Below, one piece after another: positions 1,772 through 64,000 of a DNA stretch of 64,000 bases. Position numbers and translations under genes: made by a program. The notes beneath the pieces were generated by a model, which had not been told where the DNA came from, did no database searches, and worked only from the letters and a program-made list of their open reading frames with translations. The stretch's first letter is position 1; every line of letters begins with the position of its first letter. The stretch is from Candidatus Woesearchaeota archaeon (GTDB lineage Archaea; Nanobdellota; Nanobdellia; Woesearchaeales; WJKR01), in assembly GCA_016927245.1 (NCBI GenBank), contig JAFGNA010000022.1, forward strand, positions 3,128 to 67,127. The letters run 5' to 3'.

Positions 1772-2491
1772 TTAGCGGCCGTGCACGACTGTTCCTAGGA
1801 ATTCTTGGCCGGCGACCATCTTCTCGAGCTGCTCGTACTGCCCTATGAGCAATGTGAACCCTTTGTACGCGAGTTCCTGCCCTATCCTGCACGCTGCTGG
1901 GTCGAGCGGATAGTTGCCTCCTGATCGCCAGTCATCCCCTACTAATGAGTGCAGCTTGTTCCATGTCATCTCTGGCAGGGGTTCATAGCCGCTAAGCAGT
2001 TCTTTGTCGAACGCGGTGGCCTGCACGTCGAGCACGACGGGGAAGTCCGATATCTTGATGGCACGGTCCGCGTTGAAGCTTTTCGCGAGGAGCATCATGT
2101 CATAATCCGTGCTGGAGCCGGGCAGGGCGCCAGTGGCGAGGTAGACCCTGAAGCCTGCTGGCTGCTTGGCGTGTGGGTCGATGATAAGTTGGGGGCACAA
2201 CTGTTCCTTGAGGATTGGTTTGAGCTTTTCTAGGACGTAGCGCGCGTTAATCTTGGTCACGGCGATGCCGATCTCGTCCCGGGCGTTGTGCAGCTGGTCA
2301 GCGGGCAACATAGGGGCGAAGGTGGCTTCGGCCGCTTCTTGGAGCTGGCGACAGACCTTGCCGCCGCCGATGATGAAGCAGAACTGCTCGTCTGGGTGCT
2401 GCTTGATGAGGGTGGTGAGTCTGTCGATCGCTGCTTGGTCGTACTTGCCATCGGGGTTGAGGATGCTGCCGCCGTACTTGATGATGATCAT
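1772..2491 (-). CDS. Amino-acid kinase family protein, UMP kinase (PyrH)-like
   Basis: IKYGGS N-terminal motif, FIIGGGKVCRQ (GGGKxxR of PyrH), DEIGIAVTKINARYV, GSSTDYDMMLLAKSFNADRAIKISDFPVV; about 239 aa. Isopentenyl phosphate kinase is the alternative. Confidence 0.5.
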   Translation of the reverse strand: MIIIKYGGSILNPDGKYDQAAIDRLTTLIKQHPDEQFCFIIGGGKVCRQLQEAAEATFAPMLPADQLHNARDEIGIAVTKINARYVLEKLKPILKEQLCPQLIIDPHAKQPAGFRVYLATGALPGSSTDYDMMLLAKSFNADRAIKISDFPVVLDVQATAFDKELLSGYEPLPEMTWNKLHSLVGDDWRSGGNYPLDPAACRIGQELAYKGFTLLIGQYEQLEKMVAGQEFLGTVVHGR

Positions 2492-2638
2492 GTGAGGGGG
2501 CAGGATGGCGCGCGTTTATATGCGTTGCGGAGAGAAAAGAAAAAAAATGCGCGCCTCCGAGAAAAAACATGGTGTTGGGGGGTGATGTTTTCGGACAGAG
2601 GCGCGGCGGAGAAAAGAAAAAAATGAAAGGTCGCCCGC

Positions 2639-3709
2639 TCAGCGGACGATTTCGATGCCTAACTCGTGGGAGAGCTGCTGCCTCGCGGCGGCCGCTTCCT
2701 TGGCGGTGGGCTTGCCGAGGATCCAGGGGCTCTTCACGCCGGTGATGATGGTCATCACGGTGAGCTTCCCTTTCATGTCCTCCGCGACGCGGGCGCCCCA
2801 GATGACGTTGGCGTCGTCGTCCATGCTCTCCGTGACGAGCTCGCCTACTTTGGAGATCTCGTCCAGGGTCATGTCAGGGCCGCCGGCGATGTGGATGATG
2901 GCGCCTGAGGATCCTTCGTAGCTGATGTCGAGGAGGGGGTTGCTCAGCGCTCCCTTGACTGCTTCTTCCACGCGGTTGGCTGTGTCGCTCGCGCCGACGC
3001 CGATGGCCGCGACGCCGCCGTCGGTCATGATGGTCTTGACGTCTGCGTAGTCAAGGTTGACTAGGCTGGGGACCGCGATGGTCTCGACGATGCCTTTGAT
3101 CATGGTCGCGATGAGCTCGTTAGCTACGGCGAACGCTTGCTGCACGGGCAGGTTGCCTGCTATCTGGACGAGCCGGTTGTTGTCGATGACGATGACGGTG
3201 TCGCTGACTTTCCTGAGCTGTTGCAGCCCGAACTCGGCTTTGTCTATGCGTGCCCGCTCGATCTTGAAGGGCATGGTGACCGTGCCGATGACGATGCTGC
3301 CAGAGTCCCTGGCGACTTGGGCTACGATGGGGGCTGCGCCGGTGCCGGTGCCGCCGCCCATGCCTGCGCAGACGAAGGCCATGTCAGCGTCCTTCATGCT
3401 TTCTTTGATTATCTGGATGCTTTCTTGCGCCGCTTCTGCTCCTTTCTCTGGGAAGCCGCCGCAGCCTAGGCCTCGGGTGACGTCCTTGCCGATGAGGAAT
3501 TTCCTGTCTGATTCCACCATCCTGAGGTGTTGCTGGTCGGTGTTGCAGGCGATAATCTCGGCTCCTTGTATGCCTTTCATGTAGAGCCAGTTGACCATGT
3601 TGGTTCCTGCTCCGCCGACACCGATGACCTTGATGTTGGCCTGCCCTACTTCGACGCCTTCGAAGGCGTTCGCGTTCTGTTGCTTCGCGTTGTCCACGAT
3701 GAAGTCCAT
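2639..3709 (-). CDS. ftsZ: Cell division GTPase FtsZ (ORF extends to 3817; MDFIVDN at 3709 is the likely start)
   Basis: GVGGAGTNMVN, GLGCGGFPEKG, tubulin signature GMGGGTGTGAAP. Confidence 0.9.
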   Translation of the reverse strand: MDFIVDNAKQQNANAFEGVEVGQANIKVIGVGGAGTNMVNWLYMKGIQGAEIIACNTDQQHLRMVESDRKFLIGKDVTRGLGCGGFPEKGAEAAQESIQIIKESMKDADMAFVCAGMGGGTGTGAAPIVAQVARDSGSIVIGTVTMPFKIERARIDKAEFGLQQLRKVSDTVIVIDNNRLVQIAGNLPVQQAFAVANELIATMIKGIVETIAVPSLVNLDYADVKTIMTDGGVAAIGVGASDTANRVEEAVKGALSNPLLDISYEGSSGAIIHIAGGPDMTLDEISKVGELVTESMDDDANVIWGARVAEDMKGKLTVMTIITGVKSPWILGKPTAKEAAAARQQLSHELGIEIVR

Positions 3710-51185: not shown

Positions 51186-52529
51186 TTATTGGAGCTTCGC
51201 GTAGAGTTCCTGCAGCTTGCCGTAGTAGCGGTGCTTGTCATGCTCAGGCAAGGCGTCGTAGTGCTCGAGGAGCTGGCGATAGGCGTCCTGCGCCCCTGCC
51301 AGGTCCTGCTGCGCGATGAGGTGCTCTACCCCTACGATGAGGTGGTCTAGGTCTGGCGGATGCCGCGCGGCCGCGGAGGAGGAGTCATCCTCCTTGATGA
51401 CGTCATCGAGTTGTTCTGCCAAGCGGTTGAGGTCATCGGAGAGCTCCTCATCATCCCCGAAGTACACCTCCGAGTCGTTGTCATCAGGAGAGGAGTATTG
51501 CTGGGCTGGCGCGTGCTCAGGGATGGTCGCCTGTGCCTGTTCTTGTAGCGGCGCCTCGGGAACGGCGTCTTCTGGAGGCGTGGAAGGAACGGTGTCAGTA
51601 TCTGGGATGGCCTCTTGCGGCGGGGCTTGCTCCTCAAGAACGGGCTCGGTGGTTGGCTGGTCGCCGGATGCTTGCGTTTCTTCCTGGCTCGGCGCCTCAG
51701 GAACGGCATCCTGTGCTGGCGAGGGTTGGGTCGTGCCCGAAGGCTCCGTGGATGCTTGCTGTTCAAACGGTAAGGGCTCGTCATCGCTGACGGATGGCGC
51801 GTCATGGTTGGCGTGATCGTCGGACGACCAGTCATCGGCCATCGATGGGCGGAGGGCTTCTGGCGACTCCTGCGGCTCTACCCATGAAGGCGCCTTGCCG
51901 GTGTCAGGAGCCGCCGGTTGCTCCCCTGCTGGTCGTTGCTCTTCTGCTAGCGGCTCCTGCGGGGCGCCTTGCTCCTCTGGTGAGGGTTCGAGCGACGGCA
52001 CCTCGAATTGTCCTTCCATGGTCGCCGGCGAAGGCGAGGGTCTCGGAGCGTCTTCTAATGAGGAAGCAGGGAGTTCCGGGGCGGTCTCGGGGAGCGCGTC
52101 CTTCCGCACTTCTCGTTCCTCTTGGGGGGTGAGTTGCGGCGAATCCTTGGCGGCGGGGACTTCCTTGCTCCCGAACAGGCGTGAGAACAACCCTCCTCGT
52201 TGCATCTCCTTCTTGATGAGGGAGTTCACGAGCTTGGAGAACGAGGTGAGGATGTTCCGCAACACCTCTTGAGGTATTTCTTCGTCTTTGTACTCGATGG
52301 TGCTGAAGTCCTTGAGGAGGCGGAACAGGCTCTCCTTGACCTGCTTCTCGATGTACACCTTCTTGAGCTCCTCGGTGAGCTCGTCGAACGTGAACTCATA
52401 GTTGGCGTGGAGGTATTCCTTGAAGAATTCCTTGATGACCGTGTAGACGTCGACGTCCTTGATGGAGTGCTTGCTGAGCAGGTACGCTATCTTTTTGTCC
52501 GTCATCTCCTTGAGGAGGGCTTGTGTCAT
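51186..52529 (-). CDS. Acidic Pro/Glu/Gln-rich low-complexity protein with structured N- and C-terminal domains
   Basis: 447 aa, central PE-rich disordered region, helical termini. Confidence 0.45.
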   Translation of the reverse strand: MTQALLKEMTDKKIAYLLSKHSIKDVDVYTVIKEFFKEYLHANYEFTFDELTEELKKVYIEKQVKESLFRLLKDFSTIEYKDEEIPQEVLRNILTSFSKLVNSLIKKEMQRGGLFSRLFGSKEVPAAKDSPQLTPQEEREVRKDALPETAPELPASSLEDAPRPSPSPATMEGQFEVPSLEPSPEEQGAPQEPLAEEQRPAGEQPAAPDTGKAPSWVEPQESPEALRPSMADDWSSDDHANHDAPSVSDDEPLPFEQQASTEPSGTTQPSPAQDAVPEAPSQEETQASGDQPTTEPVLEEQAPPQEAIPDTDTVPSTPPEDAVPEAPLQEQAQATIPEHAPAQQYSSPDDNDSEVYFGDDEELSDDLNRLAEQLDDVIKEDDSSSAAARHPPDLDHLIVGVEHLIAQQDLAGAQDAYRQLLEHYDALPEHDKHRYYGKLQELYAKLQ

Positions 52530-52676: not shown

Positions 52677-53684
52677 ATGGCGGATAGCTTTGAGGGCATC
52701 AGCCCTCAAGAGTTGAAAAAAGAGGTGGCCCAGTACCAACAGCGCTTCGACCGTATCCGTTCAGAGATTAGCAAGATCATGGTCGGACAGCGTCACATCG
52801 TCGACGCGCTGATAGAGGCTATCCTCTGCAACGGCCACGTCCTCCTTGAGGGCATCCCTGGCTTGGGGAAGACACTTCTCGTCCGCACGATCAGCACGAT
52901 TACCGGGTCGTCGTTCAGCCGCATCCAGTTCACCCCGGACCTCTTGCCCACCGATATCATCGGCATCACGACGTACGAGGAGGGGAAGGGGTTCTACACG
53001 GTGAAAGGCCCTATCTTCGCGAATTTCGTCCTGGCGGACGAGATCAACCGCGCCCCGCCGAAGGTGCAGTCAGCCTTGCTGGAGGGCATGCAGGAACGAC
53101 AGGTGACTATTGGTAAGGAGACGTTCAGGCTCCCGTTCCCCTTTTTCGTCATGGCAACGGAGAACCCCGTCGAGCAATTAGGGACGTACAAGTTGCCAGA
53201 GGCGCAGCTCGACCGCTTCTTGTACAAGGTGATGATGACGTACCCGACGTTCGAGGAGGAGCTCCTCATCCTCAAGCAAAACATTACCACGCGTGACTTC
53301 AGCGAGTTCGACCTGACGCCGGTATTGACCCCTGAGGAGATCATACGCGCGCAGCAGCTCGTCAAGCACATCAGGCTCGATACCAAGATTGAGAATTACA
53401 TCGTCAGAATCGTGGAGGCGACGCGCGACGCGGAGAAGTACAAGCTGGAGAGCGGCAAGTACATCAGCTTCGGCGCCTCCCCTCGTTCGAGCATCGCGTT
53501 GTTCATCGCTTCGAAGGCCCACGCGCTCATGCGCGGGAGCGAGGTGGTGAAGCCGATGGACGTGAAGAGCGTCGCTTATCAGGTGTTACGGCATCGTATC
53601 ATTCTGAATTTCGAGGGCCAAGCCGAAGAGATCAATCCAGACGTCATCATCAAGGAAATCCTCGACAAGGTCCCGATCGTGTGA
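52677..53684 (+). CDS. MoxR-family AAA+ ATPase
   Basis: HVLLEGIPGLGKT (Walker A), FANFVLADEINRAPPKVQSALLEGMQE (Walker B / sensor), 335 aa. Confidence 0.85.
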   Translation: MADSFEGISPQELKKEVAQYQQRFDRIRSEISKIMVGQRHIVDALIEAILCNGHVLLEGIPGLGKTLLVRTISTITGSSFSRIQFTPDLLPTDIIGITTYEEGKGFYTVKGPIFANFVLADEINRAPPKVQSALLEGMQERQVTIGKETFRLPFPFFVMATENPVEQLGTYKLPEAQLDRFLYKVMMTYPTFEEELLILKQNITTRDFSEFDLTPVLTPEEIIRAQQLVKHIRLDTKIENYIVRIVEATRDAEKYKLESGKYISFGASPRSSIALFIASKAHALMRGSEVVKPMDVKSVAYQVLRHRIILNFEGQAEEINPDVIIKEILDKVPIV

Positions 53685-53700
53685 TCAGGCCGCGCAGGAC

Positions 53701-54612
53701 GTGATGCGCATGGCTATCAAAGACTTGCGGGTCGACTTGACCCCACATATCAGGAAGGCGGAGATCTACGCGAAGCGCTCCGTCCTGTCCAAGAACATCG
53801 CTGGCAGCTGGGTGACCACGTTCAAGGGGCGCGGCATAGAGTTCGCGGGTTACAGGAGCTACCAGTACGGCGACGACGCATCCCTTATCGACTGGCGGGC
53901 TTCGCTGCGCGCCAAGGAATCGTTGGTACGCGAGTTCGAGGAGTACCGCAGCTTCTCCGTGTTCATCATGCTCGACGTCTCGAACAGCATGCTCTTCTCC
54001 TCTACTGGCAAGCTCAAGGCGGAGTACGCGGCGGAGCTGACCTACGGGCTCGCCGATGGCATCCTGCGCGGCGGCGACGCCGTAGGCCTCGGGATGTTCA
54101 CGGATGACCTAGACGTGAGCATCTACCCTGACATCGGTAAGGGGATGCTGGAGAAGATGTCGCAGGAGCTCGGCGACCCGAACAACTACGGCGGCAAGTT
54201 CGATTTCAAGAAGGTGCTCCGCCAGACAGTCTCTTTCCTGAAGAGCAACGCGGTGCTCATCGTCGTGTCAGACTTCCTCGGCCTTGAGGAGGGGTGGGAG
54301 CGGTACATCAGGATGATGTCGCAGCACTTCGAGATTATCGGCATCATGGTGCGCGACCCGCGAGACCGGGCGCTCCCGAAAGGCGTTGGGCAGTTCGCCC
54401 TTGAGGACCCGTACACGAACGACTACTTGTACATTGATACGAGGCAGTATGCCGAGAAGTACCGTTCGTTGGTCCTCGAGGAGGAAGAGCACGTCAAGCG
54501 CGTCTTCGAGGGCGTGAAGGGAGGATTCACGCTCATCACCACTGACAAGGATTATGTTGAGCCGTTGATGCGGTTCCTGAGGAGAAGGCAGTTTATCACC
54601 ATGACGACGTGA
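53701..54612 (+). CDS. DUF58 family (vWA-like) protein
   Basis: Typical MoxR-operon partner: GYRSYQYGDDASLIDWRASLRAKE, FIMLDVSNSM. Confidence 0.7.
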   Translation: MMRMAIKDLRVDLTPHIRKAEIYAKRSVLSKNIAGSWVTTFKGRGIEFAGYRSYQYGDDASLIDWRASLRAKESLVREFEEYRSFSVFIMLDVSNSMLFSSTGKLKAEYAAELTYGLADGILRGGDAVGLGMFTDDLDVSIYPDIGKGMLEKMSQELGDPNNYGGKFDFKKVLRQTVSFLKSNAVLIVVSDFLGLEEGWERYIRMMSQHFEIIGIMVRDPRDRALPKGVGQFALEDPYTNDYLYIDTRQYAEKYRSLVLEEEEHVKRVFEGVKGGFTLITTDKDYVEPLMRFLRRRQFITMTT

Positions 54613-54616
54613 GAGC

Positions 54617-55576
54617 ATGTACTTGACGTTCGAGAACCCGGCCTACTTGTGGTACCTTGCTAGCTTGCCCTTGCTGGTCATGACGCACTTCCTGTCGTTG
54701 CGCGGCGCGAAGCGGCGGGCAATGCAGTTCGCGAATTTCCAGACGCTGAAGCGCGTGGCTGGCAGGCGATTCGTCACGAAGAACATGACGGTGCTGCTCA
54801 TGCGCATCGCCATCTTGGTCATGCTCATCTTCTCCGCGGCGGGCATACAGCTCTGGCACCAGGCCGAGCGCCTGCCGAGCAATTACGTCATCGCCATCGA
54901 TATCTCCTCGTCCATGGCCGCTAAGGATTTCGAGCCGAGCAGGCTTGAAGTGGCTAAGGATTACGCTACGAGGTTCGTGGATACCTTGCACGCGGAAGCA
55001 AAGGTCGGCGTGGTCACGTTCTCGGGCGTGACGATCATCAAGCAGGTGCTCACCGATGACAAGAATGCCGTTAAGATCGCTATTGATAGCATCGAGATTA
55101 CAAAGGCTGGTGGTACTGACATCCCCGGCGCGCTCATAACGAGCACGAACCTGCTCCTCGCGGACCCTGACTTGGGCAAGACGATAGTCTTGTTCACCGA
55201 CGGGACTTCCACCTTGGGCAATTTCATCGACAACTCCATGGTGCGGGCGGTGAGCTACGCGCAGGAGCACAAGGTCGTCATCGACTGCGTGGGCATCGGG
55301 AGCGAGTCGGCGCCTATCGGTTACTTGCCGGAGTACTATAACATCACGGCGACGTACGACCCGGAGAACTTGTACATGCTGAGCAACGCGACGGGGGGCG
55401 TCGTCATCCCTGCTAGTGATGAGGACACCTTGGAGGAGTCGTTCGAGGGATTGCTAGAGAGCGCTGATGAGGTGTTCGTGAGCAAGCGGCTCGACCTGGG
55501 ATTGTTGGTCGTCGGGATATTGTTGCTGTTCATCGAGTGGGGGCTCATCAACTCGCGGTATCGGAGGATTACGTGA
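54617..55576 (+). CDS. VWA-domain membrane protein (BatA-like)
   Basis: N-terminal TM, MIDAS-like YVIAIDISSSM, C-terminal TM. Confidence 0.7.
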   Translation: MYLTFENPAYLWYLASLPLLVMTHFLSLRGAKRRAMQFANFQTLKRVAGRRFVTKNMTVLLMRIAILVMLIFSAAGIQLWHQAERLPSNYVIAIDISSSMAAKDFEPSRLEVAKDYATRFVDTLHAEAKVGVVTFSGVTIIKQVLTDDKNAVKIAIDSIEITKAGGTDIPGALITSTNLLLADPDLGKTIVLFTDGTSTLGNFIDNSMVRAVSYAQEHKVVIDCVGIGSESAPIGYLPEYYNITATYDPENLYMLSNATGGVVIPASDEDTLEESFEGLLESADEVFVSKRLDLGLLVVGILLLFIEWGLINSRYRRIT

Positions 55577-56053: not shown

Positions 56054-56170
56054 GCCTCCGTAGCATAGTGGCTAGTGCGTCGGTCTTGTATTGCGAAAAC
56101 GAGGGTTTTCGAAACTCTCGCTGTCGTTCGAGCAAACCGAAGGTCCCGGGTTCGACTCCCGGCGGGGGCT
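56054..56170 (+). tRNA. tRNA-Thr (anticodon TGT) with 44-nt intron at 37/38
   Basis: Acceptor GCCUCCG/CGGGGGC, D-arm GCAU-AGUGGCUA-GUGC, anticodon arm UCGGU-CUUGUA[intron]A-ACCGA, T-arm CCGGG-UUCGACU-CCCGG, discriminator U. Exon nts 32-35 CUUG pair 4/4 with intron CGAG ahead of the 3' splice site (BHB-like). Confidence 0.8.
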
Positions 56171-57364: not shown

Positions 57365-57529
57365 ATGAAGCAAGAAGTCAAGCAACTGATGGTGTACGTG
57401 CCGAAGACAATCCACAATAGGCTACGGCAACACTCAAAGAAAGTAGGCATCAACATGAGCGCACTAGCAAAACTAGCACTACACCAATACCTGGAGAACG
57501 AGGCGAACAACGATGAACGTGCACAATAG
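57365..57529 (+). CDS. Ribbon-helix-helix (CopG-like) protein, plasmid copy-control type
   Basis: Hand-translated 54 aa MKQEVKQLMVYVPKTIHNRLRQHSKKVGINMSALAKLALHQYLENEANNDERAQ; directly upstream of the replicase, as with pRN1 orf56. Confidence 0.6.
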   Translation: MKQEVKQLMVYVPKTIHNRLRQHSKKVGINMSALAKLALHQYLENEANNDERAQ

Positions 57530-57992
57530 ACTCATGAAGGACGAGTTCCGCTTCATCCTTTTAGAAGATGGAGGAAAGCCAATGGAACCCGCATGGCGAG
57601 AAAAGAACAACTATACCTATAGAGACAAGAAACTCAAAGACCACGTCTGGAAGAACCTCCCTTACGCCATCCTTTGCGGCAAGGGCAATCTCGTTGCAGT
57701 AAGCTTCAAGGACCGAGAAGCCTATGATAAGTATGCTGATGCATTGCCCTTGACACTCATGGCATCCCTCAAGACACTTAGCAAAGTAAGTTACTATTAT
57801 TGCGAGAACGCCCGAACAAAGATAATTAGGAACAAGAAGAACAAGCACGTAGCAACAATTCATGGAAAAGGCTCGTACTGCCTCGCACCAGAAAAGAGCC
57901 TAACCAGTTCATCGTGGTGTGATTACGTGTTCGACGTTCCCATTACTCGCATTAAGTACGAAGAACTAGAAGCCGTTTTCGATGAAAAATGA
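57513..57992 (+). CDS. PrimPol-domain paralog with substituted catalytic aspartates (likely inactive)
   Basis: Aligns with the N-terminus of the downstream replicase (RFILLEDGG..YAILCGKGNLVAVSFKD vs RFIIMWGKK..YGLLCGAGNYLVVDFDD); the DxD motif is replaced by SxK. Confidence 0.5.
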   Translation: MNVHNRLMKDEFRFILLEDGGKPMEPAWREKNNYTYRDKKLKDHVWKNLPYAILCGKGNLVAVSFKDREAYDKYADALPLTLMASLKTLSKVSYYYCENARTKIIRNKKNKHVATIHGKGSYCLAPEKSLTSSSWCDYVFDVPITRIKYEELEAVFDEK

Positions 57993-60109
57993 CCATCCCT
58001 GAACGACTTAGAACAGACGAAGCTCGATTCATTATAATGTGGGGAAAGAAAGGGAGCGAGGGTTGGACGACCAATGCAAATTATCATTGGAGCAATAATA
58101 AATTACAGGAGCACATAGGTAAAGGAGGAAATTATGGGCTTTTGTGCGGTGCTGGTAATTACCTCGTAGTTGATTTCGATGATGTAAAAACTATGAATAA
58201 GTATTACCCTCTGCTTCCATCATCGTTCACTGTAGAGACTGGTTCGGGGAAGAAACATGTATATTTCAAATGCGACACACCTATATCTAAAAGAATAAAA
58301 AATAAAGAAGGCAAATCGCTAATTGACATTCAAGGCAATAAGACGGCAGTGCTCTGCCCAGGAAGCAAACATCCTGACACAAATAAAGAGTATAAAGTAA
58401 TCAAAAACACAGATGTTGTTCCTATCGAATATCATGAACTTCTAGAATTATTTTCAGAATTAATAGTTAACGAAGACCTTGAGTCATCGACCAAGAAACA
58501 ACGCATTACGTATAAAGATGAAATTACCGAAAGGATTAAAGAACTAGAAAAAATATCAAACACACTATCAGACATGGGGATTCCAACAAACAAAAACCCA
58601 ACGGAATGCCCATTTCATGCCTCAAAAAGAGGGCAGTGCCTAAGTTTTGACGACGAGAAGGGCTTATGGCACTGTTTCCACTGCCTTGAAGGGGGCGACA
58701 TATTCAACCTTTATATGAAAAAGGAAAACTGGTCATTCATCGAAACAAAGAAGTATTTGATGGAAAAGCATAACCTATTTGAGGCTAAGGAAGAACCAGA
58801 GAAAAAAAGAAATATCGATTGGCGAAAGTTAGCACTAGAACTCCATAAAATAAACCCCTATTTCTTTGACAAAGGACAAAACTTTTGGGCGTGGGCACAT
58901 CAAAGGAAAGCCTACGAACTTGTTGATAAGATTGATATGATGAATATGTTTGATGCCGCATTTAACATGCCAGGAACCAGCTCAATAAGAACTCAAGCAA
59001 CAATACTAGAATCCCTAAGAAGAATTGGGCGACTAAAAATTCCTAAGGACATGCCCCCTACATGGGTACAATTCAAGGATAAGGTTGTTGATATTTCAAC
59101 TGGTGAAGAACTACTCCCTTCGCCAGAGTACTTTGCAGCAAATCCTATACCTTGGAAGTACGTTGTGGGAAAAGAAACCCCAAGAATAAACGAATTGCTC
59201 ATAGAATGGGTTGGGGAGGAATACGCTTTGTCCTTGAAAGAAATAATGGCATTCGCAATGATTCCAAACTACTTCATTCATAGAATGTTTTGCTTTATAG
59301 GGCAAGGAACGAATGGGAAGTCATCTCTCACCAAACTAATCTCCACGTTCCTTGGTGAAGATAATTGCTCAAGCGTTGACTTCCACTTCCTCATAACAGA
59401 TAGGTTTGCAACAGCACAAAAACTATACAAGAAGCTAACTTGCCTAATCACGGAAACCGACTTTGATGATGTCAAGAAAACAGCAAAATTCAAAAGCATT
59501 GTAGGCGACAAAGACAAAATGAGTTTTGAGTACAAGCACAAAACATCATTTGATGGCTATAATTACGCAAAGCCAATCATTACCACCAACCACCTCCCTC
59601 AAACTTACGACCAAAGTGATGGCTTTTTTCGCAGATGGTTCATCATTGATTTTCCGAACAAGTTTCCGGAAGACATTGACCCATTACTAACGATACCTGA
59701 AGAAGAATATGAGAACCTCACTGGCGAACTCGTAGAAATCGGGAAAAGGCTTTGGGTGGAAAGAAGATTTACCAACGAAGGAACAGTTGAACAAAGAAAA
59801 GAAAACTACGAAAAGCACAGCAACCCACTAAAGACGTTCATCGACACCAGACTAAAAAAAGACATCAATGAATTTATCGTGAAGAGAGAGTTCTTTGAGC
59901 TTTTTGAAAAATATTGCGAGGAAAAGCAAATACCAAAGTGGACCGAAAAAACAGTTGGCTCGGTAATGAGAAAACTCGAATATGAGACTGATAGAAAGTA
60001 CATCAATGGGGAACTGCACAGAGTCTTTACAGGAATCTATGTTGAGCGCAAAGATGAAAAGATTGCTGACACCAATATTCTTGACTTCGAGAAAGACGTT
60101 AATGGGTAA
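57989..60109 (+). CDS. Primase-polymerase (PrimPol/AEP) - zinc-binding - SF3/P4-type helicase replication protein
   Basis: VVDFDD (AEP catalytic DxD), Zn motif CPFH..C..WHCFHC, Walker A FIGQGTNGKSSL, Walker B LITETDFDD; 706 aa like pRN1 ORF904-type replicases. Confidence 0.8.
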   Translation: MTIPERLRTDEARFIIMWGKKGSEGWTTNANYHWSNNKLQEHIGKGGNYGLLCGAGNYLVVDFDDVKTMNKYYPLLPSSFTVETGSGKKHVYFKCDTPISKRIKNKEGKSLIDIQGNKTAVLCPGSKHPDTNKEYKVIKNTDVVPIEYHELLELFSELIVNEDLESSTKKQRITYKDEITERIKELEKISNTLSDMGIPTNKNPTECPFHASKRGQCLSFDDEKGLWHCFHCLEGGDIFNLYMKKENWSFIETKKYLMEKHNLFEAKEEPEKKRNIDWRKLALELHKINPYFFDKGQNFWAWAHQRKAYELVDKIDMMNMFDAAFNMPGTSSIRTQATILESLRRIGRLKIPKDMPPTWVQFKDKVVDISTGEELLPSPEYFAANPIPWKYVVGKETPRINELLIEWVGEEYALSLKEIMAFAMIPNYFIHRMFCFIGQGTNGKSSLTKLISTFLGEDNCSSVDFHFLITDRFATAQKLYKKLTCLITETDFDDVKKTAKFKSIVGDKDKMSFEYKHKTSFDGYNYAKPIITTNHLPQTYDQSDGFFRRWFIIDFPNKFPEDIDPLLTIPEEEYENLTGELVEIGKRLWVERRFTNEGTVEQRKENYEKHSNPLKTFIDTRLKKDINEFIVKREFFELFEKYCEEKQIPKWTEKTVGSVMRKLEYETDRKYINGELHRVFTGIYVERKDEKIADTNILDFEKDVNG

Positions 60110-60599
60110 GTGTTGCCAGGATTGCCATAATTGCCACCATTCTTATATTGTGAATACCACTTATTGTATTTGGTATAATGGAATAAAGAAAGGTGGCAAA
60201 CCTGACAATTGTGGCAAAAAGAAGCATAAGCATTATATTTGCCATCACATTCCCACAGGCATGGTCTACGAAGCCCGTACATTTGGTGCCTGGGAGGTCG
60301 AGGACGACCTCATCCAAATAGGCATCCTTGACTACCCAATAATCCTTTCGTTCACCTACGAGCAACTTAATAGCATTAGAAGGGACCTCTCACAGCTGCC
60401 TGATTTCCAGGTCTACGATGACGAGCTACGAGATTTTGACTCGATTAGAGCATACACGTCACCCGGAGAGGAAATGGTCTACGTCCTCTTCAAAGAGCTA
60501 GGAGGACTAAGCGTAGGCATACCTAAGAAGGAGTTCTCGACCTTCTGCGAGGAGCTGGTGCAGCTCAACCCGCAATTCATGCTGGAACGGGAAAATTGA
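60102..60599 (+). CDS. Cys/His-rich small protein (putative zinc-binding), C-terminal half of higher GC
   Basis: MGKCCQDCHNCHHSYIV..CIWYNG..CGKKKHKHYICHH N-terminus; ATG overlaps the replicase stop. Confidence 0.4.
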   Translation: MGKCCQDCHNCHHSYIVNTTYCIWYNGIKKGGKPDNCGKKKHKHYICHHIPTGMVYEARTFGAWEVEDDLIQIGILDYPIILSFTYEQLNSIRRDLSQLPDFQVYDDELRDFDSIRAYTSPGEEMVYVLFKELGGLSVGIPKKEFSTFCEELVQLNPQFMLEREN

Positions 60600-60780: not shown

Positions 60781-61566
60781 ATGCTGACTGAAGACATTGC
60801 ACTGTACCAAGAGCTACTCGACTTATGCGGGGACATTACCCAATATACCGAAAACACACAGACATTCCATTCTCAAATGTCTTGGACACCCCTCAATGAA
60901 AAATGTAATCATACAATATTACCATTATCAGAAGTAGTACCAAGACAAAGCTTATTTCCTAAAATACCGGAATTAGAGCAAGAATGTAAAGAATGCTGGA
61001 AATTCTATCTCTCACCGAGAAACAAGAGCATTAGAGTTCTGGACATACAATTAGGAAGAAAATTTGAATTCAAGCTCATCGAGTTCCTGAAAAGAAAAGG
61101 TATCGACTGCAGAAAAGGAGATGAGGAAGACAAACGGTTTCCTGATAATGTTGTTTATACTGACGGGAAAAAATCAGCATATTTGGAGATAAAGTATCAA
61201 TCAGCACCATGGCTGTGGGCTTATCGTGAAGAAGGCTCCAATAGAGAATGTTATGAAGGCAGCCCCGCATTAGACATAAAAAAATTAAAACAACAATATG
61301 AACTAATAAAGTCAGGTGCAATAACCATCCCATCGTATTATGTTTACTGGTTGGACTTCCCATGCATCAAAGGAGTATTTTTCATCTCAATAGAAGATAT
61401 GTATAAATTCTTTGAAGAAGAGGCAATTCTTTTTGATAGAAAGGAAAGAGAAGGAGACTTCAAAACAATTAATGGAGTAAAAAAGAAAGTTTCAGCCACA
61501 ATAAAAATTCATCCTTCATTATTTAGAATGAAATCATTTTCACAATTGCTTGAGGTTTTGATATAG
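60781..61566 (+). CDS. PD-(D/E)xK nuclease-fold protein (candidate restriction endonuclease)
   Basis: FPDNVVYTDGKKSAYLEIKYQ fits PD...(D/E)xK; several CxxC pairs; gene abuts the TGT-like gene. Confidence 0.45.
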   Translation: MLTEDIALYQELLDLCGDITQYTENTQTFHSQMSWTPLNEKCNHTILPLSEVVPRQSLFPKIPELEQECKECWKFYLSPRNKSIRVLDIQLGRKFEFKLIEFLKRKGIDCRKGDEEDKRFPDNVVYTDGKKSAYLEIKYQSAPWLWAYREEGSNRECYEGSPALDIKKLKQQYELIKSGAITIPSYYVYWLDFPCIKGVFFISIEDMYKFFEEEAILFDRKEREGDFKTINGVKKKVSATIKIHPSLFRMKSFSQLLEVLI

Positions 61567-63012
61567 ATGTTTGAATTAAAAAAGAAAATAGGTTCTATTA
61601 GAAGCGGAGTATTTCATAGTAATAAGAAAGCAAGTTCTACGCCTTGTTTTTTCGCCACGTCAAATTTTGGAGGTGGTGGAACGAATGTTTCTCGCCTGTT
61701 GGTATATTCTGATTTGTTAAGTGAATCGAATATTAATCTGTTATTAAATTATTATTATATTGATATTGACTCTGATTTGAGTCCAAGATTCGACACCTCT
61801 TTGGTTGAGGATTTCAAAGGTATGAAAGATATACTTGATTTTATTAAACACATTAAGAAAGCATACTGTGAGAAAAGTGATGCTCTTAAGAAAGATTATT
61901 CCATATCTGAATCGGAGTGGAAGCCTGTAGTTTTGTTAGATAGTGGCTCAGGAAACATTCTCAGGAATAAAATAAAAAATAAAGAGTTGACCAAAGATAA
62001 TTATTCAGAGAAGTATAAATCTGTTGTTGATGATTACCTTTCATTCTTAGAAAAACATCTTTTTGATATAGGTATTGTAATGGACTTTGCTAAGAAAAAT
62101 ACTTACAAGGCAGGAGAACTTAGCGATGTTGAATATGTGAAAAATATAACTTTTTTCACAACAAAGAACTTTGACCTCTTGAAAATGACACTTCAAGAAC
62201 AAAAACAGAAGTTTCCCAATCTTAATTTGTTTGTTCCAATTCACGGAGATTCACTTGAAGAATATTATGATTATTTAAAGAATATACTTAAATTAGAATC
62301 AAAAGAAAAATTTCTTTTCAAGGGATTTGCTATAGGGGGTTTAGGAAATCCTAATAAGGTAGATAAGACTATTTGGGGTATTCCTGATGAAGTTAATGGG
62401 AAAGTTAAAGGGATGCTTTATCTCAATAAAATAGCTGCAAAAATAAGAAAAACACTTGATGAAAGAAGCGACGATAGGCCTATTCACATTCTCGGCGCGG
62501 CATCACCATATAACCTAATACCCTTACTTTTATCAGGAATGGATACTTTTGATTGTCATAGTGCGTGGAGACGAGCGTCTGATGGCAACAGCGATTCAAA
62601 AGACTATGTGTTGAAGTCAATAAAAGAAAATGTCAAGGTTGATGGAGATGTAAAATTCTCTAAAATACTTGTTCCTTTACTAAAAAAAGACCTGTCCATT
62701 ATTGTGGAAAATAAATCATCATTTTTAGAATTCGAAAAATTACATTTGATTAAAAATGATAATTGGAATTGTGATTGTCCAGTTTGTGAAAAGTTTTCAA
62801 TTAATCAAATTAAAGAATTATTTTCGGGTGACCAAGAAAGAAACTTTTTTTCAAAAATATTGATTTACATTCATAGCATATATCAATATCAATACATTTG
62901 CGAATTGTTTTCCTCCTTTGATAAGTATGATGATGTTGGAAGGTTTATAGAATCGCTCCCTGATTGTTCCTATAAAACTAACCTTAAAACGTTTTTAGAA
63001 CACATAATATAG
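61567..63012 (+). CDS. tRNA-guanine transglycosylase (TGT) superfamily protein, DpdA-like candidate DNA 7-deazaguanine transglycosylase
   Basis: TGT hallmarks in order: STPCFFATSNFGGGGT (cf. TPCFMPVGT), VVLLDSGSGN (cf. LTDSGGFQ catalytic Asp), GFAIGGLG (cf. GYAVGGLAVGE), PIHILGAASPYNLIPLLLSGMDTFDCHS (cf. PRYLMGVG..GIDMFDC), zinc site CDCPVCEKF (cf. CDCYTC). Confidence 0.75.
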   Translation: MFELKKKIGSIRSGVFHSNKKASSTPCFFATSNFGGGGTNVSRLLVYSDLLSESNINLLLNYYYIDIDSDLSPRFDTSLVEDFKGMKDILDFIKHIKKAYCEKSDALKKDYSISESEWKPVVLLDSGSGNILRNKIKNKELTKDNYSEKYKSVVDDYLSFLEKHLFDIGIVMDFAKKNTYKAGELSDVEYVKNITFFTTKNFDLLKMTLQEQKQKFPNLNLFVPIHGDSLEEYYDYLKNILKLESKEKFLFKGFAIGGLGNPNKVDKTIWGIPDEVNGKVKGMLYLNKIAAKIRKTLDERSDDRPIHILGAASPYNLIPLLLSGMDTFDCHSAWRRASDGNSDSKDYVLKSIKENVKVDGDVKFSKILVPLLKKDLSIIVENKSSFLEFEKLHLIKNDNWNCDCPVCEKFSINQIKELFSGDQERNFFSKILIYIHSIYQYQYICELFSSFDKYDDVGRFIESLPDCSYKTNLKTFLEHII

Positions 63013-63792
63013 TTACATGAAATCTTTCAGGTTTGATTCTTTTTTCAATCTGTTTCTGGTCATTTCACAATATTTCTTATCTAAATCTATACCAATAGAA
63101 TTCCTTCCAAGCTTTTTTGCAGCTAACAAGGTTGTTCCAGAACCGACAAACGGGTCAAGTACCCAATCACCCTTATTGGAAGACATTTTTATGATTCGCT
63201 CAATCATGTCTACTGGATAAATGCAAGGGTGTTCAGTTATTCCCAACTTCTTCTTAGTCATGTTATTAACTCTATTGAAAAACCAAACATCTGTTGGGTT
63301 TCTACCAGAACTTGCATCGAACCGCTTATCATTTTGAGTAATGACGGGAATTTTTACATCTTTTAGGTTGAATACATAGTTGTTAATATCTTTTACGAAC
63401 CACAATACCGCCTCCCATCTCCCGGCCAGTCGTTTTGTTGGATTTTGCATATTATTAAAATGCCAGATTATTTTATTACGTAGAAAAAAACCATTCTTTT
63501 TTCCTATTCCCCATGCAATTGAATCTAATGGGATTATTTCCTTTGTCTTTTTGTCAGGTATAGGACTCACATTCAAAAAGAAGCTTCCATCAGGGGTTAA
63601 TACTCTTTTCAGTTCTTTGAAAGTAGCGCTTATCAGTTTCTTCCATTCATCAATATGGACATCATCAATGTAGAGCAAATAATCTTTTTTTAGATTGTAT
63701 GGTGGCGAGGTAACAGCAAGTCTAATTGATTTGCTCTTGAGTTTCTTTAGTTCTTTAATACAATCTCCTTGTATTATGTTAGCTTCAACCAT
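63013..63792 (-). CDS. DNA methyltransferase, N4-cytosine/N6-adenine beta-class
   Basis: Motif [12 protein letters not shown] (SPPY) precedes motif [10 protein letters not shown]; 259 aa. Confidence 0.85.
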
Positions 63793-63979
63793 TATACTTA
63801 ATCTCCATAGGTTTTCTTGTTGAAAAAGCGTCTGATTCGTTCAAAAGTCCTAAAACCCACGATTTTGCTTGCTTTAAGACGTGCCTTAGCTCACGACTCC
63901 CCACCCATTCTCCTTCACTAAACAATTCATCAACCCTATCAGCTTGTGTTTTTGTTAGAATATGTTTTGTTTTCGTCAA
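63785..63979 (-). CDS. Small hypothetical protein of the element
   Basis: 64-aa AT-rich ORF overlapping the MTase start. Confidence 0.3.
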
Positions 63980-64000
63980 AGTATTTTCATATGTTATTCT

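Follow-up and report, generated by a model that had tools for sequence, protein, structure and literature searches.

Introduction

Restriction-modification (R-M) systems are the most studied of the prokaryotic defences, and to our knowledge their restriction step has been described as phosphodiester hydrolysis by a few nuclease folds, the PabI glycosylases excepted. The PabI family establishes that restriction by base excision exists, and the authors who describe it anticipate other kinds of "generalised R" (PMC10273834). The present work brings this topic together with the fold of the tRNA-guanine transglycosylases (TGTs). In DpdA, the active site comprises Asp95, Phe99, Asp130, His181, Leu236 and Asp256 (PMC10164549), and the TGT of the BRC systems has GNAT, HerA/FtsK and PglZ proteins as partners (PMC12839542), which differ from those found here. 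We consider a gene, designated T (61567-63012, + strand), in a 64,000-nucleotide stretch of DNA from a Candidatus Woesearchaeota archaeon (GenBank assembly GCA_016927245.1, contig JAFGNA010000022.1, positions 3,128 to 67,127 of the forward strand); the whole stretch is called the window, and coordinates are those of the window unless another locus is named. T encodes a divergent TGT-superfamily enzyme, and it is accompanied by a gene for a PD-(D/E)xK nuclease (P) and by two genes for DNA methyltransferases (MT1 and MT2). These four genes are obligately linked and make up one R-M unit, in which the TGT-fold enzyme is an obligatory part without precedent among R-M systems. Our literature search returned no description of a TGT-fold protein linked in this way with a PD-(D/E)xK nuclease and a pair of N4/N6 methylases, and the cassette hints at a means, not described before, by which foreign DNA is attacked or marked at its guanines.

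Catalytic residues and family of T

An initial annotation of the window, made from its letters and open reading frames (ORFs), had read 61567-63012 on the + strand as a 481-amino-acid member of the TGT superfamily with five signature motifs in the canonical order, and all of this holds. The motifs are PCF (residues 26-28), DSG (125-127), GFAIGG (253-258), MDTFDC (325-330) and CDCPVC (402-407), and they are collinear with those of the superfamily. The Pfam TGT model PF01702 covers residues 117-443 with 46.7 bits, against a gathering cutoff of 26.3, and the T family profile aligns with Escherichia coli Tgt (b0406) over 340 columns at an hhalign probability of 95% (E 2e-8). In this alignment, D125 of T falls on the general acid/base Asp (D89 in E. 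coli Tgt), D173 on the base-recognition Asp (D143), GG257-258 on the GGL motif and D329 on the nucleophile Asp (D264). C402, C404, C407 and H436 align with the Zn ligands, and the CxCxxC...H site is present. The fold is the TGT-type (beta/alpha)8 barrel, that is, a triosephosphate isomerase (TIM) barrel. One detail of the annotation, an insertion of about 100 residues between DSG and GFAIGG, proved wrong: from D125 to G257 there are 132 residues, the hhalign alignment to E. coli Tgt is nearly free of gaps there, and in bacterial Tgt the distance from the catalytic Asp to the GG is 128 in Zymomonas mobilis numbering. The extra length of T is found instead ahead of DSG, on the N-terminal side, and in the stretch from Asp329 to the Zn site (residues ~340-400), and this latter segment is variable and partly missing from shorter members of the family.

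Conservation was counted over 111 unique full-length T-family sequences, at roughly 25-30% identity. The nucleophile D329 is kept in all 111, D173 in 110 and D125 in 109, and because these three are so nearly invariant at such a depth of divergence, T is best read as an enzyme under selection for TGT-type catalysis and not as a decayed scaffold. H307, L309 and R336 are likewise found in every sequence (111/111 each), and the features that are both invariant and peculiar to the family include a GGGGTNVSR loop and the R335-R336 pair. Position 129, a Gly in T, holds a small residue in 106 of the 111. The Zn ligands are kept in about 75% of the family and lost in about 25%, these being the Bacteroidales clades and the clades of T', a divergent form described below; the structural Zn site is dispensable.

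The family is rare. An exhaustive phmmer search of 1.84 billion protein cluster representatives gave 64 T-family representatives and no canonical Tgt among them, and a search of 5.8 billion proteins with T gave 89 matches, among them JXA12_05795 of a Woesearchaeota MAG at 100% identity. All of the representatives come from metagenome-assembled genomes (MAGs) or metagenomes. In the Genome Taxonomy Database (GTDB), where the search for related loci was made with an alignment of 23 closer T sequences, the full alignment of 57 having no conserved stretch of 7-10 columns, 9 of 185,579 species representatives carry the family, patchily across phyla; these carriers belong to Aenigmatarchaeota, Iainarchaeum, a Lokiarchaeon and Bacteroidales, and all are MAGs. 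Altogether, the family extends over DPANN and Asgard archaea, bacteria of the candidate phyla radiation (CPR) and Bacteroidales of the gut or rumen. Since tblastn found no match to T in the PLSDB plasmids, the INPHARED phages or IMG/VR, the family is not known from sequenced plasmids or viruses. NCBI annotates both T and P as "hypothetical protein", and neither PADLOC 2023 nor PHROGs holds a model for either of them.

Where T belongs within the superfamily was assessed with profiles. Against PDB sequences, the T profile matches Tgt at 1e-5, the archaeal ArcTGT at 6e-4, DpdA (7UI4) at 5e-3 and Cap10 at 0.18. The NCBIfam equivalog cutoffs were missed by a wide distance, T scoring 36 bits against 306.75 for TIGR00430 (Tgt) and 13.6 against 350 for TIGR00432 (ArcTGT), and the tgt_general model gave 39 bits against a cutoff of 47.6. 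Pfam detected no PUA or C-terminal tRNA-binding domain in T. The PADLOC DpdA model reached 14.4 bits (E 0.003) over just 30 residues at the Zn motif, the PADLOC "TGT" model 25.8 bits over 48 residues, and hhalign against the DpdA of phage 9g returned a probability of 1.9% and no alignment. As judged from these comparisons, T lies at about the same distance from all of the characterised TGT branches, Tgt, ArcTGT, DpdA and Cap10 alike, and is therefore a separate branch of the superfamily, neither DpdA nor tRNA Tgt. The annotation was right that T is not a housekeeping tRNA enzyme, as seen from its context in a mobile element, the missed equivalog cutoffs and the missing PUA domain. Its label "DpdA-like" is not supported, T being closer to Tgt than to DpdA in the PDB comparison, and the check it had suggested, of profiles for TGT, ArcTGT and DpdA, revealed no particular kinship with DpdA.

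Linkage of the four genes

Among 21 non-redundant loci found by way of T or P, all four genes are present in each of the 19 that have enough flanking sequence (19/19); the remaining 2 are truncated by the end of the contig. So that the count should not depend on T or P as the bait, loci were also recruited by MT1 alone. The 80 obtained in this way comprise 58 complete cassettes, 19 whose contigs stop at the place expected for the missing gene, and no more than 3 orphan methylase loci, which have long flanks and neither T nor P. L092 is a clean orphan: a helix-turn-helix (HTH) gene, MT2 and MT1 are flanked on both sides by host genes, and nothing is left of T or P. T or T' is present in every informative locus that contains P, and among the loci surveyed T and P were never seen without methylases. 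Methylases without T and P, but not the converse, is the asymmetry expected if T and P are toxic in the absence of methylation. Hence, as methylase-only loci exist and loci with T and P alone have not been seen, the pattern is that of R-M decay, in which the dangerous genes are lost first.

A class of 11 loci had at one point been set apart as having MT1, MT2 and P and no T, which would have made T optional. This class was rejected: the adjacent 374-codon ORF is the divergent form T', which keeps the three Asp residues, the GG and an HxLG motif and has no Zn site.

The linkage is kept while the order of the genes varies, with at least five patterns represented: P>T> <MT1<MT2, P>T>MT2>MT1>, T>P>MT2>MT1>, P>MT1>MT2> <T, and a dispersed layout in a Lokiarchaeon that has a second copy of T. 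In this last locus (L017; Loki_b31, contig NJBI01000010.1), the second copy is a very divergent paralog of 412 amino acids (1943-3181, - strand) placed divergently beside P, and the regular T is 4 kb from P and the paralog, behind the methylases. The paralog keeps the Asp of LLDxGG, the nucleophile Asp, the RR pair and CxCxxC, and has lost the GGGG and GG motifs. The neighbours of the cassettes are often defence genes, among them Type I R-M, PIN, CRISPR-Cas and further methyltransferase genes, together with genes for an Mrr_N-domain protein and an SRA_ScoMcrA-domain protein.

Nuclease and methyltransferase partners

P (60781-61566, +) encodes 261 amino acids; it is an obligate companion of T and is predicted to be the subunit that cleaves DNA. 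It has an invariant PD121-122...E136-x-K138 and, by fold search, a restriction-endonuclease-like fold; its profile found no match among PDB sequences, and the placement is that of the fold search. The P stop codon (TAG, 61564-61566) is followed at once by the T start codon (ATG, 61567), and the T stop codon, which ends at 63012, is followed at once by that of the convergent MT1, which begins at 63013, the gap being 0 bp in both cases. In most loci, P and T are separated by 0 bp or overlap briefly. MT1 (63013-63792, -) is a beta-class N4/N6 DNA methyltransferase of 259 amino acids with the motif SPPY (Pfam N6_N4_Mtase, 1e-55; PADLOC MTase_II, 1e-57), and SPPY is kept in 12 of 12 orthologs. The second methylase gene lies just beyond the window and is read from L001, a second assembly of the same locus that reaches further, and whose coordinates plus 55710 give those of the window. 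MT2 (L001 8383-9255, window-equivalent 64093-64965) also matches N6_N4_Mtase (2e-60) and carries SPPY. Across MT1 and MT2, both SPPY and FxGSGT are present in 24 of 24 cases, and what is found beside a nuclease with an intact PD...ExK is therefore a pair of methyltransferases with intact motifs, the composition of a Type II R-M system. An SPPY at motif IV points to N4-cytosine, and MT1 and MT2 probably make N4-methylcytosine, one on each strand of an asymmetric site.

The annotation had recognised the PD-(D/E)xK nuclease at 60781-61566, the convergent SPPY methyltransferase at 63013-63792 and the 0-bp gaps on both sides of T, and we confirm them all. It had further suggested an uncharacterised module; the module is novel and tied to the nuclease and to methylation as proposed, but two methyltransferases are always present where one had been seen.

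In three lineages, MT2 is about 500 amino acids long (L028 8804-10300, L030 7981-9468 and L017 5061-6578). The N-terminal extension of ~250 residues contains a second, partial N6_N4_Mtase stretch by Pfam and no other domain, and is possibly half of a methylase that has been duplicated or has degenerated.

Regulation and divergence

Many of the bacterial cassettes have a P/T operon headed by a gene for an HTH_3 protein, followed by P and by T or T'. Such loci include those of the Bacteroidales L010, L018, L020 and L021, the unassigned contig L027 and several of those recruited by MT1. The protein of L010 finds its best PDB matches in C.BclI (4.8e-16) and C.AhdI (3.1e-11), which are R-M controller (C) proteins, and a subset of the cassettes thus has the type of regulator known from R-M systems, where C proteins gate or delay expression of the restriction gene. 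The cassettes of archaea and CPR bacteria have a P-T operon facing a convergent MT2-MT1 operon, upstream of which is a small ORF resembling ribbon-helix-helix (RHH) proteins. The window cassette is of this kind, with no HTH_3 controller and, instead, an RHH-like ORF of 44 codons upstream of MT2 (L001 9245-9379).

Between the C protein and P (or T), the Bacteroidota-type cassettes have a further conserved ORF of ~140 codons (L010 6792-7217, L018 6786-7208, L019 6789-7211, L020 7574-7990, L021 7565-7981 and, in the T' type, for example L079 8713-9114). It was considered as a member of the P family on the strength of a jackhmmer match, and was rejected when a clean profile gave 16.9 bits, to one member and over the core of the nuclease, and no PD or ExK was found. 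It may be a degenerate P paralog with a regulatory or structural role.

The genes of the cassette differ in their rates of change. Pairwise identities are 31-71% for T and 30-71% for P, and 54-83% for MT1 across archaea and bacteria. T and P are therefore the faster-diverging members, which is the usual contrast between R and M genes.

The integrated element

The cassette is carried by an element of ~13 kb that has inserted at a tRNA gene with an intron. The annotation had placed T in AT-rich foreign DNA and in an integrated element, and both descriptions are correct. At ~56.1 kb, the GC content drops from the ~58% of the host to 32-46%, and it returns to 58% soon after the repeat beyond the integrase described next. 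The left border is the tRNA gene (56054-56170, +; Rfam RF00005, 55 bits, E 3e-11), the 3' end of which serves as the attachment (att) site. This 3' end, CCGGCGGGGGCTT, is repeated at L001 13746-13759 (window-equivalent 69456-69469), just past a tyrosine integrase gene (L001 12241-13449, window-equivalent 67951-69159), so that the low-GC element, taken between these borders, is ~13.3 kb long and runs from 56171 to the end of the window at 64000 and on to ~69469. The tRNA gene has an intron of 44-46 nt, which Rfam shows as a 46-nt insertion in the anticodon loop; ARAGORN in default mode missed it, and it was found by inspection of the sequence and with Rfam. Its isotype is ambiguous: ARAGORN with the -i option gives Ala(AGC) with an intron at the non-canonical position 33/34, and an intron at the canonical 37/38 would give Thr(UGU). 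Four degenerate copies of the tRNA 3' end (L001 13538-13555, 13620-13637, 13742-13759 and 14418-14435, window-equivalent 69248-70145), at 78-89% identity, follow the integrase and precede the point at which GC regains the host level, with a small AAA_5-like ORF between the last two; they may be scars of earlier integrations or a decayed second element.

The cargo reads P, T, MT1, an ORF of 102 codons, MT2, the 44-codon RHH-like ORF and a DUF2779/Cas4-like gene. The 102-codon ORF (63785-64000 and on to 64093, -; L001 8075-8383) overlaps both methylase genes, and it has no homolog elsewhere among loci L001-L022 and no family match. The DUF2779/Cas4-like gene (L001 9495-10979, window-equivalent 65205-66689, -; 494 amino acids) encodes a protein, 487-494 residues long in the loci that have it, with a Cas4-like PD-(D/E)xK N-terminal region. 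In the Woesearchaeota locus the gene is a neighbour of the cassette, and in another locus, of DPANN type, it overlaps the beginning of P (L005 7772-9235); most cassettes are without it, and its product may be an accessory nuclease of a cassette subset. The annotation had proposed looking beyond 64000 for preQ0 genes, and the rest of the element contains none, nor dpdB, dpdC or an amidotransferase gene.

Outside the R-M cassette, the element encodes its own replication protein (57989-60109, +) of 706 amino acids, which combines a primase-polymerase (PrimPol) domain, a Zn-ribbon and a D5/P4-type helicase (Pfam Prim-Pol, Zn_ribbon_DnaG and DUF5906; NCBIfam primase_Cterm, 134 bits against a cutoff of 108.7). 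A 159-codon ORF (57513-57992, +) with weak similarity to PrimPol overlaps the start of this gene by 4 nt and may be a duplicated or split primase N-terminal domain. At its other end, the replication gene is partly overlapped by a 205-codon ORF (59982-60599, +) that has a Cys/His-rich stretch (CCQDCHNCHHS...) and no family match; the gene caller kept its last 112 codons (L001 4551-4889). On the host side of the border, a 447-amino-acid protein (51186-52529, -) has a long, acidic, low-complexity middle rich in Pro, Glu, Ala and Gln, and adjoins an operon of MoxR ATPase, DUF58-like and VWA-type genes (52677-55576).

Discussion

What might a TGT-fold enzyme be doing in an R-M cassette? To our minds the matter is about evenly poised as regards the general proposal, that T and P are the restriction half of a four-gene R-M system and that T flips or excises guanine at unmethylated sites. 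The fuller version, in which T is a restriction enzyme that uses transglycosylase chemistry to excise guanine and P turns the lesion into a break, is put forward more tentatively, as one that may well be wrong. Under the general proposal, MT1 and MT2 would be the modification half and P and T the restriction half. T would recognise its unmethylated target in DNA and flip a guanine into the TGT-type pocket formed by D173, H226 and GG257-258; Asp329 would then attack C1', helped by Asp125, as the equivalent residues do in Tgt and DpdA. Release of the guanine would leave either an abasic site or a covalent adduct between Asp329 and the deoxyribose, in effect a DNA-protein crosslink, and P would cut the backbone at or near this lesion. 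On host DNA, methylation by MT1 and MT2 would block recognition or flipping by T, and if the mark is N4-methylcytosine (m4C), it would be on a cytosine paired with, or next to, the target guanine. The small residue at position 129 is compatible with a pocket in which an incoming base need not be held. A role for T in restriction is also more parsimonious than one in hypermodification, because the two methyltransferases are always there and the four genes form one R-M unit.

Several observations count against this proposal. We know of no characterised TGT enzyme acting on nucleic acid that is a hydrolase, all being base exchangers, and guanine excision by T is therefore an extrapolation. P by itself has all that a Type II endonuclease needs, which leaves unexplained why a second catalytic protein should be indispensable. 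The nearest solved relatives of the two methylases disagree as to base specificity, that of MT2 being an N4-cytosine methyltransferase and those of MT1 the N6-adenine enzymes M.RsrI and M.MboIIA. Moreover, P and T are not adjacent in L030 and L017, and they seem not to have travelled strictly together: the P of the window is closest to that of L016 (Iainarchaeum, 51%) and 33-35% identical to the Aenigmatarchaeota versions, whereas the T of the window is closest to those of L002, L005 and L014 (51-53%) and 38% identical to that of L016, which indicates that P and T subtypes have recombined between cassettes. The identity matrices of P and T correlate with a Pearson coefficient of 0.68, and the trees are no more than loosely congruent. 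Non-adjacency and loose congruence make for a weaker association than would be expected of a tight heterodimer. It must also be said that the T family is known from sequence alone and that its hosts are all uncultured MAGs.

The main alternative is that T acts on DNA as DpdA does, exchanging guanine at specific sites for a 7-deazaguanine, which could be preQ0, preQ1 or a queuine precursor obtained by salvage, or for some other base, the product being either a third protective mark beside those of the two methylases or a mark that P reads. We consider this unlikely in both versions, though it accords with what the TGT family is known to do and with the His that T (H226) appears to share with DpdA. 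No FolE, QueD, QueE, QueC, DpdB or DpdC was found in the element, in 348 kb of sequence surrounding members of the family or among the Pfam assignments for more than 100 loci; the dpdA of phage 9g, by contrast, adjoins folE, queD, queC and queE. Many of the hosts are DPANN or CPR organisms, whose biosynthesis is minimal. Neither the DpdA hidden Markov model (HMM) nor phage DpdA matches T, and T lacks the aromatic residue against which Tgt and DpdA stack the free base. Base exchange would also leave unexplained the constant pair of methylases, the presence of T in a nuclease operon under C-protein control and its nuclease-like divergence, and T and P without methylases have never been observed. 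The annotation had favoured DNA hypermodification, and on present evidence that role is not supported, being weakened by the two constant methyltransferases and by the missing preQ0 and Dpd genes.

The other alternatives make T a reader, or return it to tRNA. T could be a catalytically silent or slow specificity subunit that flips guanine in order to read the target and then recruits or licenses P, much as a large and a small subunit divide the work in heterodimeric Type II enzymes; but a reader would not need both nucleophile and general acid, and with D329 kept in 111 and D125 in 109 of the 111 sequences, this seems improbable. A shade more improbable still is that T senses 7-deazaguanine-modified phage DNA and directs P to it, as an add-on that would extend an otherwise ordinary two-methylase Type II system to hypermodified phages. 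TGT pockets do bind 7-deazaguanines, their natural class of ligand, and the Dag glycosylases target deazaguanine-modified phage DNA (bioRxiv 10.1101/2025.10.29.685425). Yet an optional add-on should often be missing, and every informative locus with P has T or T'. Nor is excision of a 7-deazaguanine by TGT chemistry likely, the insertion of these bases by bacterial Tgt being effectively irreversible. Finally, we give almost no credence to T being a tRNA-guanine transglycosylase, of the Tgt or ArcTGT kind, for tRNA of the host or the element: its profile is marginally closest to bacterial Tgt, but the equivalog scores given above are far below cutoff (36 against 306.75 and 13.6 against 350), there is no PUA or tRNA-binding domain, and in archaea and bacteria alike T is strictly linked to genes for a DNA nuclease and a pair of DNA methylases, within defence islands and mobile elements.

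If T does excise guanine, as proposed, base-excision restriction would gain a second fold, unrelated to that of PabI, and a new target base, guanine, at which it would be the first; T would also be the first member of the TGT family to damage nucleic acid instead of modifying it. If T exchanges guanine, it would represent a new DNA-modifying TGT branch without linked precursor genes, in organisms of minimal metabolism, and would be a sign that uncultured archaea and bacteria of the gut contain DNA modifications that have gone unrecognised. In either case, T is a fourth use of the TGT fold outside tRNA, after DpdA, Cap10 and the TGT of the BRC systems. The family is small and well defined, with catalytic residues that can be tested, and T could, if either activity is real, serve as a sequence-specific tool for excising or exchanging guanine.

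Comparison with known systems

With Tgt (PDB 1ENU and 3UNT; E. coli b0406), T shares 18-21% identity. It has His226 in place of Gln and Gly129 in place of an aromatic residue, together with its own GGGGTNVSR loop and the RR at 335-336; and unlike Tgt it is not a housekeeping enzyme, and its family has lost the Zn site in about a quarter of members. Identity to DpdA (7UI4) is lower, at ~15%. Five of the six active-site residues of DpdA appear to have counterparts in T (D125, D173, H226, L309 and D329), as mapped by way of the Tgt alignment and not by superposition on DpdA, and the sixth, the stacking Phe99, is replaced by Gly129 (small in 106/111). The surroundings differ as well: the T loci have no DpdB, DpdC, DpdD-K or preQ0 genes, the partners being a PD-(D/E)xK nuclease and two methylases, and T is found instead in a nuclease operon gated, where a C protein is present, by that controller. 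Cap10, from type IV CBASS (PDB 9NTN), uses the fold in yet another way, binding a deazaguanylated protein N-terminus, and has neither a Zn site nor a nucleic-acid surface. It is accompanied by the QueC-like Cap9 and a CD-NTase, neither of which is in any T locus, and the T profile matches it at no better than E 0.18.

Under the proposal made above, a functional parallel is R.PabI of the HALFPIPE group, where Type II restriction proceeds by excision of an unmethylated base in place of, or ahead of, phosphodiester hydrolysis (PMC10273834, PMC4357717). The HALFPIPE fold is unrelated to the TIM barrel of T, which is thus a functional analogue at most and not a member of the group. R.PabI excises the adenine of GTAC as a single protein with intrinsic apurinic/apyrimidinic (AP)-lyase activity and has one methylase, whereas the T cassette has guanine as its predicted target, a separate and obligatory PD-(D/E)xK nuclease and two methylases. 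In layout, the cassette resembles the heterodimeric Type IIT systems such as BbvCI, which likewise have four genes, for two different restriction proteins and two methylases, as would be expected where an asymmetric site is dealt with one strand at a time. In those systems, both restriction subunits are PD-(D/E)xK nucleases; in the T cassette, one of the two is a TGT-fold enzyme.

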